From: Escherichia coli
GTDB taxonomy: Bacteria > Pseudomonadota > Gammaproteobacteria > Enterobacterales > Enterobacteriaceae
Reading direction: 5' to 3' (one strand)
Assembly: GCF_003334305.1 (NCBI RefSeq)
Contig: NZ_QOWS01000004.1
DNA: 64,000 bases
The position numbers were made by a program, and so were the translations under genes. Shown piece by piece: positions 11,486 through 48,200 of the stretch. Under the pieces are notes generated by a model, which saw nothing but the letters and a program-made list of their open reading frames with translations, was not told where the DNA came from and ran no database searches. Position 1 is the first letter of the stretch. Each line of letters opens with the position of its first letter.

Positions 11486-13003
11486 TTATTTTACCGGACG
11501 CATCGCCGGGAACAGAATAACGTCGCGGATGGTATGGCTGTTGGTGAACAGCATTACCATACGGTCGATGCCAATCCCCAGACCTGCTGTCGGCGGTAAG
11601 CCATGTTCCAGTGCGGTAACGTAATCTTCATCGTAGAACATCGCTTCGTCGTCACCTGCGTCTTTCGCGGCAACCTGATCCAGGAAGCGTTGCGCCTGAT
11701 CTTCCGCGTCATTCAGCTCGCTAAAGCCGTTACCGATTTCACGACCACCGATGAAGAACTCAAAGCGGTCTGTGATTTCCGGGTTAATGTCGTTACGACG
11801 CGCCAGCGGAGAAACTTCTGCCGGATATTCAGTAATGAAGGTCGGCTGAATCAGATGTGCTTCTGCCACTTCTTCGAAGATCTCGGTAACGATACGGCCC
11901 AGACCCCAGCTCTTCTCAACGTGGATACCGATAGATTCAGCAATCGCTTTCGCAGAGTCGAAGTTATCCAGATCCGCCATGTCGGTTTCCGGGCGATATT
12001 TCTTGATCGCTTCACGCATGGTCAGTTTTTCGAACGGTTTACCGAAGTCCAGCGTCACGTCGCCGTAGGTCACTTCCGTCTTACCGAGAATATCCTGTGC
12101 CAGAGTACGGAACAGCGATTCGGTCAGCTCGATCAGATCTTTGTAATCTGCGTAAGCCATGTAGAGTTCCATCATGGTGAACTCTGGGTTATGACGTACG
12201 GAGATACCTTCGTTACGGAAGTTACGGTTGATTTCGAATACACGCTCGAAGCCACCGACCACCAGACGCTTGAGGTACAGTTCCGGCGCGATACGCAGGT
12301 ACATGTCGAGATCCAGCGCGTTATGGTGGGTGATAAACGGACGCGCAGCGGCACCGCCAGGGATCACCTGCATCATCGGCGTTTCAACTTCCATAAAGCC
12401 GCGGTTCACCATGAACTGGCGAATACCAGAGAGGATCTGCGAGCGTACTTTAAAGGTGTTACGGGATTCATCGTTAGAGATGAGATCCAAATAACGCTGA
12501 CGATAGCGCGCTTCCTGATCCTGCAAGCCGTGGAATTTATCCGGCAGCGGACGCAGTGCTTTGGTCAGCAGACGCAGCTCGGTACAGTGGATAGACAGTT
12601 CGCCGGTTTTGGTTTTGAACAGTTTACCTTTCGCGCCGAGGATGTCGCCGAGGTCCCATTTTTTGAACTGCTCGTTGTAAACGCCTTCCGGCAGATCGTC
12701 ACGGGCAACGTACAGCTGAATGCGACCGCCAACGTCCTGCAGGGTAACGAAAGACGCTTTACCCATAATACGACGGGTCATCATGCGGCCAGCAACGGCG
12801 ACTTCGATGTTCAGCGCTTCCAGTTCTTCGTTCTCTTTACCGTCGAATTCTGCGTGCAATTGGTCAGAGGTATGATCGCGACGGAAATCGTTCGGGAAGG
12901 CAATCCCCTGCTCGCGCAGGTTCGCCAGCTTCTCACGACGCGTTTTCAGTTCATTGTTAAGATCGACTACCGCGTCAGCGCCCTGTGCGTGTTGTTCAGA
13001 CAT
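11486..13003 (-). CDS. lysS: Lysyl-tRNA synthetase (class II)
   Basis: 505-aa ORF matching E. coli LysS from memory; starts 10 nt downstream of the prfB stop, consistent with the prfB-lysS operon. Confidence 0.93.
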
Positions 13004-13012
13004 GTTGGTTCC

Positions 13013-14111
13013 TCATAACCCTGCTTTCAAACTTGCTTCGATAAATTGATCCAGGCTGCCGTCCAGCACGGCCTGCGTGTTGCGGGTTTCTACCCCGGTA
13101 CGCAGATCTTTAATGCGGGAGTCATCAAGGACATAAGAACGAATCTGGCTGCCCCAGCCGATGTCGGATTTGTTATCTTCCATCGCCTGTTTCTCGGCAT
13201 TTTTCTTCTGCATCTCCAGTTCATAAAGCTTCGCTTTCATCTGCTTCATGGCCTGGTCTTTGTTCTTGTGCTGGGAACGGTCGTTCTGGCATTGGGTCAC
13301 GATCCCGGTTGGGATGTGGGTAATACGCACCGCAGATTCGGTACGGTTAACGTGCTGACCGCCCGCGCCGGACGCGCGATAAACGTCAATGCGCAGATCC
13401 GCCGGGTTGATTTCGATATCAATATCATCATCAACTTCCGGGTAAACAAACGCAGAGCTGAACGATGTGTGGCGACGACCGCCGGAGTCAAACGGGCTTT
13501 TACGCACCAGGCGGTGAACGCCAGTTTCTGTACGCAGCCAGCCGTAAGCGTAATCGCCGGAGATTTTGATCGTCACGGATTTAATACCCGCCACTTCACC
13601 TTCCGACTCTTCGATGATTTCAGTTTTGAAACCACGCGATTCTGCCCAGCGCAGATACATACGCTCAAGCATGCTCGCCCAGTCCTGTGCTTCCGTACCG
13701 CCAGACCCCGCCTGAATATCGAGGTAGCAGTCGGCGCTGTCATATTCGCCAGAGAACATACGGCGGAACTCAAGCTGCGCCAGTTTTTCTTCCAGGGCGT
13801 CGAGTTCAGCAACGGCTTCGTTAAAGGTTTCTTCGTCGTCAGCTTCTACAGCCAGTTCCAGCAGACCAGAAACATCTTCCAGCCCCTGTTTCATTTGGTC
13901 GAGGGTGTCGACAACGGCTTCGAGGGAGGAACGCTCTTTACCCAGCGCCTGTGCGCGTTCGGGTTCGTTCCAGACATCCGGCTGTTCCAGCTCGGCGTTT
14001 ACTTCTTCCAGACGCTCTTTCTTGGCGTCGTAGTCAAAGATACCCCCTAAGAACGTCGGAGCGTTCCGTGAGGTCCTGAATGCGATTATTTACCGGATTA
14101 ATTTCAAACAT
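13013..14111 (-). CDS. prfB: Peptide chain release factor 2, expressed through a programmed +1 ribosomal frameshift
   Basis: ATG at 14111 opens a 25-codon frame ([25 protein letters not shown]) ending in in-frame TGA at 14036-14034. The +1 frame from 14035 continues into ORF 13013..13894, giving 365 aa in total. SPF and GGQ motifs are present. Confidence 0.93.
14028..14048 (-). other. prfB +1 frameshift site (internal SD-like AGGGGG, then CUU UGA C)
   Basis: Minus-strand sequence reads ...CTT AGG GGG TAT CTT TGA C...; this is the canonical autoregulatory RF2 recoding site. Confidence 0.9.
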
Positions 14112-14201
14112 GGTCTGATTTCTTTTATTGAGCTAGTCAAAATGCGGTGATAAGAGCGGGATTGTACCCAATCCACGCTCTTTTTTATAGAGAAGATGAC
14201 G

Positions 14202-15935
14202 CTAAATTGGCCAGATATTGTCGATGATAATTTGCAGGCTGCGGTTGCCGCGAAACTCGTTGATATCGAGCTTATAAGCCAGTTGCACTTCACGCACGCC
14301 GTTATCCGGCCAGAGGGCGGTATCGACATTAAAAGCAATACCATCCAGCAGTGGACCGCCGCCGACCGGTTCGACCATCACCTTCAAATGACGTTCGCCC
14401 ACCAGCCGCTGTTGCAGCAGACGGAAATGACCGTCAAACAGCGGCTCCGGGAACATCTGCCCCCACGGGCCAGCATCGCGCAGCAACTGCGCCACTTCCA
14501 TGGTCATTTCGGCCGGGCTTAACGGACCGTCTGACACCACTTCGCCTTGCAATAGCGAAGGGTCCAGCCACTCTGTAACCAGTTCGCCAAACCGTTGTTG
14601 AAAGAGTTCGAATTTATCCTCTTCCAGCGACAAACCCGCCGCCATCGCATGACCGCCAAACTTCAGCATCATGCCAGGGTAGAGTGTGTCTAATCGCTCC
14701 AGTGCATCACGCATATGCAGCCCCTGAATGGAGCGACCTGAACCTTTCAGCGTACCATCACCTGCTGGCGCAAAGGCGATAACCGGACGGTGAAAACGCT
14801 CTTTGATGCGCGAAGCCAGAATACCGACAACGCCCTGATGCCATTCGGGGTGGTACATTGCCAGCCCGCCGGGTAGCGTGTCGCGACTTCGCTCCAGTTT
14901 CTCGCACAGGGTCAGGGCTTCAACTTGCATTCCTTGTTCGATCTCTTTTCGCGTCTGGTTTAGCGCATCGAGTTCATTTGCCAGCACGCGCGCTTCGCCG
15001 ATGTTGTCGCACAGCAACAGCGCCACACCGACGGACATATCGTCCAGTCGCCCGGCAGCATTGAGACGTGGCCCCAGCGCAAAACCTAAATCGCTGGCGG
15101 CGAGTTTTTGCGCATCGCGATTTGCCACTTCCAGCAGCGCTTTAATCCCCGGACGGCACTTTCCGGCACGGATGCGACTCATCCCCTGCCAGGTCAGAAT
15201 GCGATTATTAGCGTCCAGCGGCACGACGTCCGCTACTGTCCCCAGCGCTACCAGATCCAGCAGTTCTGCCAGGTTAGGAATTGCGATGCCACGCTCATCA
15301 AACCAGCCCTGATCGCGCAAAAAGGTGCGCAGCGCCAGCATCAGATAAAACGCCACACCCACGCCTGCCAGTGATTTCGACGGGAAATTACAGTCGCGCA
15401 AGTTAGGGTTAATGATCGCTTCCGCCGCGGGTAATGTTTCGCCTGGCAAATGGTGATCGGTAACAATAACCGGAATGCCCAACGAGCGAGCGTGTTCAAC
15501 CCCCGCATGGGAGGAAATACCGTTATCCACCGTGACAATTAACTGCGCGCCACGGGCATGGGCCTGATCGACCACTTCCGGGCTTAAGCCGTAACCGTCT
15601 TCGAAACGGTTTGGTACCAGGTAGTCGATATTGCTGCAACCAAGCGAGCGCATCGCCAGCACGCTTAGAGCCGTGCTGGTCGCGCCGTCGGCGTCAAAAT
15701 CGCCGACCACAATAATCCGCGTTCCTTCGCGAAAAGCGTTGTAAAGGATCTCAACGGCCTTTTCGACGCCGCTCAGTTGCTGCCAGGGCAACATACCTTT
15801 AACACTGCGTTCCAGTTCTTGCGCACTGCGCACGCCCCGGCTGGCGTATAAACGGCGCAGCAAGGGAGGCAATTCAGCGGGCAAGTCTGCCGTTTCATCG
15901 ACTTCACGGCGACGAAGTTGTATCTGTTGTTTCAC
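14202..15935 (-). CDS. recJ: Single-stranded-DNA-specific 5'-3' exonuclease RecJ
   Basis: 577-aa ORF with DHH-family motifs (VTDHH, GGHAMAAG). Confidence 0.92.
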   Translation of the reverse strand: MKQQIQLRRREVDETADLPAELPPLLRRLYASRGVRSAQELERSVKGMLPWQQLSGVEKAVEILYNAFREGTRIIVVGDFDADGATSTALSVLAMRSLGCSNIDYLVPNRFEDGYGLSPEVVDQAHARGAQLIVTVDNGISSHAGVEHARSLGIPVIVTDHHLPGETLPAAEAIINPNLRDCNFPSKSLAGVGVAFYLMLALRTFLRDQGWFDERGIAIPNLAELLDLVALGTVADVVPLDANNRILTWQGMSRIRAGKCRPGIKALLEVANRDAQKLAASDLGFALGPRLNAAGRLDDMSVGVALLLCDNIGEARVLANELDALNQTRKEIEQGMQVEALTLCEKLERSRDTLPGGLAMYHPEWHQGVVGILASRIKERFHRPVIAFAPAGDGTLKGSGRSIQGLHMRDALERLDTLYPGMMLKFGGHAMAAGLSLEEDKFELFQQRFGELVTEWLDPSLLQGEVVSDGPLSPAEMTMEVAQLLRDAGPWGQMFPEPLFDGHFRLLQQRLVGERHLKVMVEPVGGGPLLDGIAFNVDTALWPDNGVREVQLAYKLDINEFRGNRSLQIIIDNIWPI

Positions 15936-15940
15936 GCGAA

Positions 15941-16651
15941 TTATTTACCGCTGGTCATTTTTTGGTGTTCGTCGAGGAATTCTTTCATCTCTTTCAGCGG
16001 CTGGTAACCCGGAACAAGTGTGCCATTGCTCAGCACAACTGCCGGAGTACCGCTAACGCCAAGCTGGACGCCAAGTGCGTAATGGTCGGCAATATCCACG
16101 TCGCAGCTGGCTGGTGCGACGCTTTTACCTGCCATCACATCATCAAACGCTTTGTTTTTATCTTTCGCACACCAGATAGCTTTCATTTCTTTCTCTGCAT
16201 CGCTGTCCAGCCCCTGGCGCGGGAAAGCAAGATAACGCACGGTGATCCCCAGCGCGTTATAGTCTGCCATTTGCTCATGCAGTTTGTGGCAGTAACCACA
16301 GGTAATATCAGTAAACACGGTGATGACGTGTTTTTCCTGCGGCGCTTTATAAACGATCATCTCTTTTTCAAGCGCATTCAACTGCTTTAACAGCATCTTA
16401 TTGGTGACATTGACCGGAGCCGTGCCGCTAACGTCATACATTGGCCCCTGAATGATATGTTTACCATCATCGGTGATGTACAACACGCCGCTGTTAGTCA
16501 GAACTGTCTTCATGCCAGCTACGGGCGCGGGCTGAATATCGCTGCTTTTGATGCCCATTTTGGCTAACGTTTGTTGAATTGCCGCGTCATCAGCCTGAGC
16601 AAAACCTGAAAACGCCGCTAACAAAGTAAACAACATAAAACCTTTCTTCAT
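15941..16651 (-). CDS. dsbC: Periplasmic disulfide isomerase DsbC
   Basis: 236-aa ORF with N-terminal signal peptide and CGYC active site (DITCGYCHKLH). Confidence 0.92.
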   Translation of the reverse strand: MKKGFMLFTLLAAFSGFAQADDAAIQQTLAKMGIKSSDIQPAPVAGMKTVLTNSGVLYITDDGKHIIQGPMYDVSGTAPVNVTNKMLLKQLNALEKEMIVYKAPQEKHVITVFTDITCGYCHKLHEQMADYNALGITVRYLAFPRQGLDSDAEKEMKAIWCAKDKNKAFDDVMAGKSVAPASCDVDIADHYALGVQLGVSGTPAVVLSNGTLVPGYQPLKEMKEFLDEHQKMTSGK

Positions 16652-48100: not shown

Positions 48101-48200
48101 TGCCGGATGCGGCGTGAACGCCTTATCCGGCCTACAAAAACCTGCAAATTCAATATATTGCAGGATACGTGTAGGCCTGATAAGCGTAGCGCATCAGGCA
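48101..48200. repeat. BIME: two REP palindromic units in inverted orientation
   Basis: TGCCGGATGCGGCGTGAACGCCTTATCCGGCCTAC (48101-48135) and GTAGGCCTGATAAGCGTAGCGCATCAGGCA (48171-48200), matching the REP consensus, with a small central hairpin. Confidence 0.85.

Follow-up and report, generated by a model that had tools for sequence, protein, structure and literature searches.

How can the release factor RF2 be produced from a gene that is closed by an in-frame stop codon after only 25 codons? This question is raised by a locus of 1,099 bases that we located by sequence reading at 13013..14111 on the minus strand of the window, i.e., of the whole 64 kb stretch of DNA that was analysed. A mechanical list of open reading frames returns at this place only a 25-aa ORF (14034..14111) and a 293-aa ORF that begins at the ATG at 13894. 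The original prediction had assigned both to a single gene, prfB, which could not be read as one ORF, with 25 codons followed by an in-frame UGA in the context AGGGGG-UAU-CUU-UGA-C and by 340 further codons in the +1 frame. All of these elements are indeed present where they had been placed, and they lie on the minus strand, which the prediction had left unstated. Read directly from position 14111, the minus strand begins with ATG TTT GAA ATT AAT CCG GTA AAT AAT CGC ATT CAG GAC CTC ACG GAA CGC TCC GAC GTT CTT AGG GGG TAT CTT TGA C, and the locus is built as follows:

14037..14111, minus: prfB ORF0, the zero-frame part of RF2, an ATG followed by 24 further sense codons, matching residues 1-25 of 1gqe exactly
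14111..14109, minus: start ATG of prfB
14043..14048, minus: internal Shine-Dalgarno-like element AGGGGG, 3 nt 5' of CUU and 6 nt 5' of the stop, a motif-defining element (PMC12421855)
14040..14042, minus: UAU (Tyr24), the spacer codon as read from the sequence, expected in the E site while CUU is in the P site
14036..14039, minus: slippery run CUUU, consisting of CUU (Leu25) and the U of UGA; the elements are read from the sequence, the re-pairing from CUU to UUU is taken from the literature
14039..14037, minus: CTT codon of Leu25
14033..14036, minus: in-frame UGA as codon 26 (TGA at 14036..14034) followed by C (14033), a weak, RF2-specific UGA-C context
14035..14033, minus: GAC (Asp26), the first codon of the +1 frame
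13016..14035, minus: prfB ORF1, 340 sense codons in the +1 frame, corresponding to RF2 residues 26-365 by translation and by the alignments to TIGR00020 and 1gqe
13892..13894, minus: internal ATG (Met73), start of the naive 293-aa ORF
13013..13015, minus: prfB stop TGA, overlapping the lysS Shine-Dalgarno sequence GAGGAA

No ATG, GTG or TTG was found in the +1 frame between its upstream stop (14092..14090) and the ATG at 13894. The 16-nt motif AGGGGGNNNCTTTGAC that makes up the site occurs a single time in the 64 kb window, even with one mismatch permitted, at an expectation of 0.05 from shuffled sequences. At the sequence level, the locus combines all features of a prfB recoding signal, namely a UGA near codon 26 with CUU on its 5' and C on its 3' side, AGGGGG at the corresponding spacing, and a contiguous RF2 in the +1 frame. 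The site is more than a chance occurrence mainly because the RF2 homology is unbroken across the junction, and in addition because it is conserved within and between species (see below). The mechanical list also contains stop-free antisense "shadow" ORFs, one of 334 aa at 13046..14050 and one of 471 aa at 11603..13018 (both on the plus strand), which are accompanied by no gene evidence.

Joining the two frames by conceptual translation yields a protein of 365 aa. An alignment of this frameshifted product to RF2 had been put forward as a check, and it bore the prediction out: the product aligns directly, from residue 1 to residue 365 and with one mismatch, to the solved structure of E. coli RF2 (1gqe_A), and it scores 525.9 bits against the NCBIfam model TIGR00020 for prfB (cutoff 370), in an alignment that covers residues 12-362 and passes unbroken through the 25/26 junction. 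Models of RF1 reached 303.8-305.7 bits on the same product, which is under their cutoffs of 400 and 423. The protein carries the tripeptide SPF, at which RF1 has PxT, together with the catalytic GGQ motif, and this combination defines RF2. The corresponding codons, and one position that varies between E. coli strains, are found in ORF1:

13490..13498, minus: SPF codons (residues 205-207), the RF2 tripeptide for stop-codon recognition, read from the sequence
13355..13363, minus: GGQ codons (residues 250-252), the motif for peptidyl-tRNA hydrolysis, read from the sequence
13373..13375, minus: Ala246 codon (Thr246 in K-12), from sequence comparison (PMC5373646)

Ala246 is the usual form of RF2 in E. 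coli, while Thr246 is a peculiarity of K-12 that comes with weaker termination (PMC5373646). We conclude that 13013..14111 (minus) is almost certainly the prfB gene of E. coli, from which the full-length 365-aa RF2 is obtained only via a +1 shift at codon 25/26.

The annotation of identical sequences is in full agreement. A RefSeq record of identical sequence holds the same 1,099 bases as prfB, with a coding sequence joined from two pieces and described as a "programmed frameshift," in the gene order xerD-dsbC-recJ-prfB-lysS-idi; K-12 b2891 is annotated alike, which supports the reading as prfB with the canonical RF2 +1 recoding site and its internal Shine-Dalgarno element. The 1.4 kb surrounding prfB show 100% identity with many E. 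coli chromosomes, and the prfB region is single-copy in all complete E. coli genomes (5,426/5,426). It had also been expected that an annotation pipeline would truncate the protein to the 293-aa ORF. With naive callers this does happen: a protein identical to the 293-aa product (window 13016..13894, minus) is deposited in public collections under RF2 names, on no fewer than 1000 contigs and beside the correct 365-aa protein, and mis-annotation of prfB by such callers is therefore widespread. It does not apply to the NCBI pipeline, which treats prfB with a dedicated "exception" model. The gene needs a two-piece CDS, as RF2 is otherwise entered as a 293-aa fragment without its first 72 residues.

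Within the species, the canonical site was directly observed in 5,420 of the 5,426 complete E. coli genomes, in which a 36-nt query centred on the site is matched exactly over 28 nt or more, the site included. About 1,005 E. coli genomes differ from this query by one mismatch, which in the three genomes examined is a synonymous TAC>TAT change at Tyr27 of the +1 frame, located 3' of the site and leaving CTTAGGGGGTATCTTTGAC unchanged. In the TAC>TAT variant (~1,000 genomes; window position 14028..14036, minus) a second zero-frame TGA appears two codons on (TGA CTA TGA), and it backs up the first stop when ribosomes read through unshifted. The six non-canonical genomes were recovered by junction-specific queries and fall into three kinds:

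CTTGAC (one T fewer): O157:H7 strains SS17 (NZ_CP008805.1) and SS52 (NZ_CP010304.1); in frame, same protein
AGGGG (one G fewer): 51008369SK1, RM8995-C1 and BH100, unrelated strains; in frame, with LRGIF replacing LRGYL
AGGGGGG (one G more): A15; out of frame

The remaining accessions of these deviant genomes, which have the changes in the G run, are NZ_CP029973.1, NZ_CP031355.1, NZ_CP024650.2 and NZ_CP028759.1. The recJ gene adjoining prfB in A15 is also annotated as frameshifted, and SS52 was obtained by Ion Torrent sequencing with reference-guided assembly and manual curation (PMC4395050). Each of the six differs by a single base in a homopolymer, which is most simply read as an assembly error, and the six genomes probably represent assembly artefacts and not a natural loss of the frameshift; that SS17, SS52 and the three records with a G4 run might be genuine natural losses seems to us rather unlikely. 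The earlier remark on strains without the frameshift thus hardly holds within E. coli, where the deviating fraction (6/5,426) is more likely artefactual, while it does hold for other phyla (PMC12421855).

Conservation between species was assessed by a plain-DNA scan of species-representative genomes (~300 Gb) for the 15-base pattern AGGGGGTNTCTTTGAC, which returned at least 120 loci; being chosen by the motif, this sample speaks for the specificity of the motif for prfB and for its fixed position, and not for its frequency in prfB. The matches listed span Gamma- and Betaproteobacteria, Bacillota, Bacteroidota, Fusobacteriota, Nitrospirota and others. For 113 of the 120 matches listed, translation in the +1 frame from GAC yields a homologue of residues 26-365 of E. 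coli RF2, with identities of 26-99.7% (median 65%), and in all but one of these (112/113 among the matches listed) the alignment opens at residue 1 of both sequences, which is the post-shift GAC codon. Where the downstream ORF is complete (n = 101 among the matches listed), it counts 339-353 codons, with a mode of 340. The remainder of the 120 listed comprises five matches outside prfB and two that are cut by the locus end. The five non-prfB matches (L046, L050, L055, L077 and L109) have short +1 ORFs without RF2 homology and are consistent with chance.

The 114 motif-anchored sequences also show which frame is under selection. Information content is lowest in codon phase 2 upstream of the site (0.13 bits) and in phase 0 downstream of it (0.28 bits); the wobble phase thus moves from 2 to 0, which indicates that the frame under purifying selection changes by +1 at the site. 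The middle base of the spacer codon varies across species, with A in 72, C in 34, T in 7 and G in 1 of the 114 sequences. In a published survey, a premature stop in prfB was reported for 64% of 12,753 species genomes, and AGGGGG, CTTT, TGA and the next C were all found to be hyper-conserved (PMC12421855).

Could the interrupted frame be explained without a programmed frameshift? The in-frame stop might have arisen from faulty sequencing or assembly, or prfB might be a pseudogene in this strain. One-base homopolymer errors do hit this exact site, given that 6/5426 assemblies are off by one T or G and that one of these six also has a frameshifted recJ adjoining, but the window holds the majority sequence of 5420/5426 complete genomes, many records match it at 100% over 1.4 kb, and other phyla retain the arrangement, with both frames showing selection. 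As RF2 alone reads UGA and prfB is essential in E. coli, a pseudogene is moreover untenable. An error or a pseudogene is therefore very improbable, and both were rejected on population and cross-species conservation. Alternatively, the locus might consist of two cistrons, a leader peptide of 25 aa and a 293-aa RF2 that starts at Met73 (13894) and lacks the N-terminus. This is exactly the result of mechanical ORF calling, and the 293-aa product is widely deposited; however, the 47 codons from Asp26 (GAC) to Met73 contain no start codon, although residues 26-72 are conserved as protein, with 112 of the 113 cross-species alignments among the matches listed beginning at residue 26. In addition, codon periodicity follows the +1 frame immediately after the site, residues 1-72 are covered by both the family model and the solved full-length protein, and ribosome profiling shows that the second frame is translated from the point of the shift onward (PMC5373646). 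We rejected the combination of a leader peptide and an internal start at Met73 on the grounds that residues 26-72 are protein-conserved and startless, and we give it very little credence.

Decoding of the UGA in frame, be it by readthrough, by a suppressor tRNA or as selenocysteine, could draw on the leakiness of UGA, which exceeds that of the other stop codons, and on the weak UGA-C context. Yet the zero frame past the UGA stops after 32 codons and has no resemblance to RF2, ~1,000 E. coli genomes even carry the second zero-frame TGA two codons on (TAC>TAT), and the RF2 homology lies entirely in the +1 frame. In-frame readthrough was thus rejected, since what follows in the zero frame shows no relation to RF2 and closes after 32 codons, and its probability appears vanishingly small. 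Finally, the frame might be restored not by the ribosome but in the RNA, if transcription slips on the run of T or G. Short homopolymers are present at the site (G5 and T3), and sequence alone cannot separate shifts at the RNA level from those at the ribosome level, but these runs are far shorter than those that give efficient slippage of the polymerase. The conserved RF2-specific stop, the weak 3' context and the fixed spacing of the Shine-Dalgarno element fit a ribosomal mechanism only, and the efficiency of frameshifting responds to the release-factor genotype (PMC5373646), so that slippage in transcription can be regarded as practically negligible.

Programmed +1 frameshifting by the ribosome is thus the reading that we retain; no observation speaks against it, and the anatomy of the site matches, element for element, the mechanism established for E. 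coli prfB (PMC12421855). UGA is read by RF2 alone, and a following C makes it a weak stop; AGGGGG, located 6 nt 5' of the stop, pairs with the tail of the 16S rRNA, and tRNA-Leu on CUU can re-pair on UUU (PMC12421855). We infer the slip itself, the contribution of the pairing between Shine-Dalgarno and anti-Shine-Dalgarno sequences and the dependence on the level of RF2 from published reporter and ribosome-profiling experiments on the identical site sequence of K-12 (PMC5373646, PMC12421855). After 25 codons, the P site of the ribosome would be occupied by tRNA-Leu paired to CUU, and UGA-C would stand in the A site. When RF2 is plentiful, termination at UGA-C would follow and a 25-residue peptide would be released, whereas scarcity of RF2 would cause the ribosome to pause at UGA-C. 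During this pause AGGGGG would pair with the anti-Shine-Dalgarno tail of the 16S rRNA, the P-site tRNA-Leu would slip from CUU to the overlapping UUU, and GAC (Asp26) would enter the A site; translation in the +1 frame would then run for 340 codons and give full-length RF2. Because high RF2 would lead to termination at codon 26 and low RF2 would permit the shift, RF2 would repress its own synthesis in a negative feedback at the level of translation.

Ribosome profiling of the endogenous prfB locus gave ~28% frameshifting in K-12 and ~21% with Ala246 RF2 (PMC5373646). Ala246 is the allele in the window. In a K-12 strain without RF3, frameshifting increased to ~47%, and it rises when termination is impaired (PMC5373646). 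The prfB frameshift is a classic case of a protein that senses its own activity through recoding, and it has been surveyed in >12,000 genomes (PMC12421855).

The genes next to prfB are all encoded on the minus strand, with recJ at 14202..15935 and dsbC at 15941..16651 on the upstream side and lysS on the downstream side:

11486..13003, minus: lysS (lysine--tRNA ligase), in the same orientation as and downstream of prfB, its start 9 nt past the prfB stop (TGAGGAACCAACATG)

Termination at codon 26 would leave ~1 kb of ribosome-free RNA 5' of lysS, and effects of polarity or coupling on lysS are therefore conceivable. That the level of RF2 might also tune lysS in this way, through polarity or lost translational coupling, we nevertheless regard as doubtful. 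A consensus scan for promoters and terminators over 12900..14400 gave one match each, at or below the shuffle expectation, and yielded no usable prfB promoter or recJ terminator. An imperfect hairpin of 12-13 bp, AGAGCGGGATTG-TACC-CAATCCACGCTCT, is located in the gap that separates the recJ stop from the prfB start (window 14153..14187); it has a T run on the plus strand and, on the gene strand, an A run preceding it. This hairpin may be a terminator of recJ or a bidirectional terminator, and its score in the consensus scan is at chance level. An Rfam scan of the whole window matched no family at 13013..14111, Rfam having no model for such a short linear signal. Elsewhere in the window, gathering-level matches were obtained to 6S RNA (SsrS) at 33691..33874 and to the ES036 (CssrF) sRNA at 48136..48178, both on the plus strand, and Rfam also places two tandem Sib antitoxin RNAs at 34523..34673 and 34915..35065 (plus).

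Compared with known systems, the locus is the known RF2 recoding site itself; it is already known and adds nothing to the established picture. The prfB gene of K-12 is the founding example of autoregulatory recoding of RF2, a case known from the 1980s onward. Over 249 nt that include the start codon and the shift site (window 13930..14178), the sequence does not differ from that of K-12 prfB (b2891), which has the same gene length (1,099 nt), junction and neighbourhood and the same two-piece "programmed frameshift" annotation. Nine substitutions separate the two genes, of which eight are synonymous and one changes a residue (Ala246 here, Thr246 in K-12), so that a K-12 strain is ruled out as the origin of the window. 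A related logic is seen in eukaryotic antizyme, in which a +1 shift at an in-frame UGA likewise is the sensor of an autoregulatory circuit, but the antizyme shift senses polyamine and depends on a downstream pseudoknot and on upstream elements, with no pairing between a Shine-Dalgarno element and rRNA, and the proteins are unrelated. The dnaX gene also uses an internal Shine-Dalgarno element as a stimulator; its shift, however, is a -1 shift on a heptanucleotide, with the Shine-Dalgarno element further upstream and a hairpin downstream, and it gives two useful products and not a feedback loop. Together with prfB, E. coli dnaX (-1) and pheL (+1) are cases of ribosomal frameshifts in native genes, the one in pheL being without an established function (PMC5373646). 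Among Bacteria, Actinomycetota and Mycoplasmatota have no frameshift site in prfB (PMC12421855). In other lineages, the spacer codon of the prfB site varies (TAT, TCT, TTT), as does the length of ORF0. The sites known across Bacteria share one consensus, AGGGGG, a 3-nt spacer and CTT TGA C at about codon 25-26 (PMC12421855), and the site described here shows the same consensus and no difference in kind.
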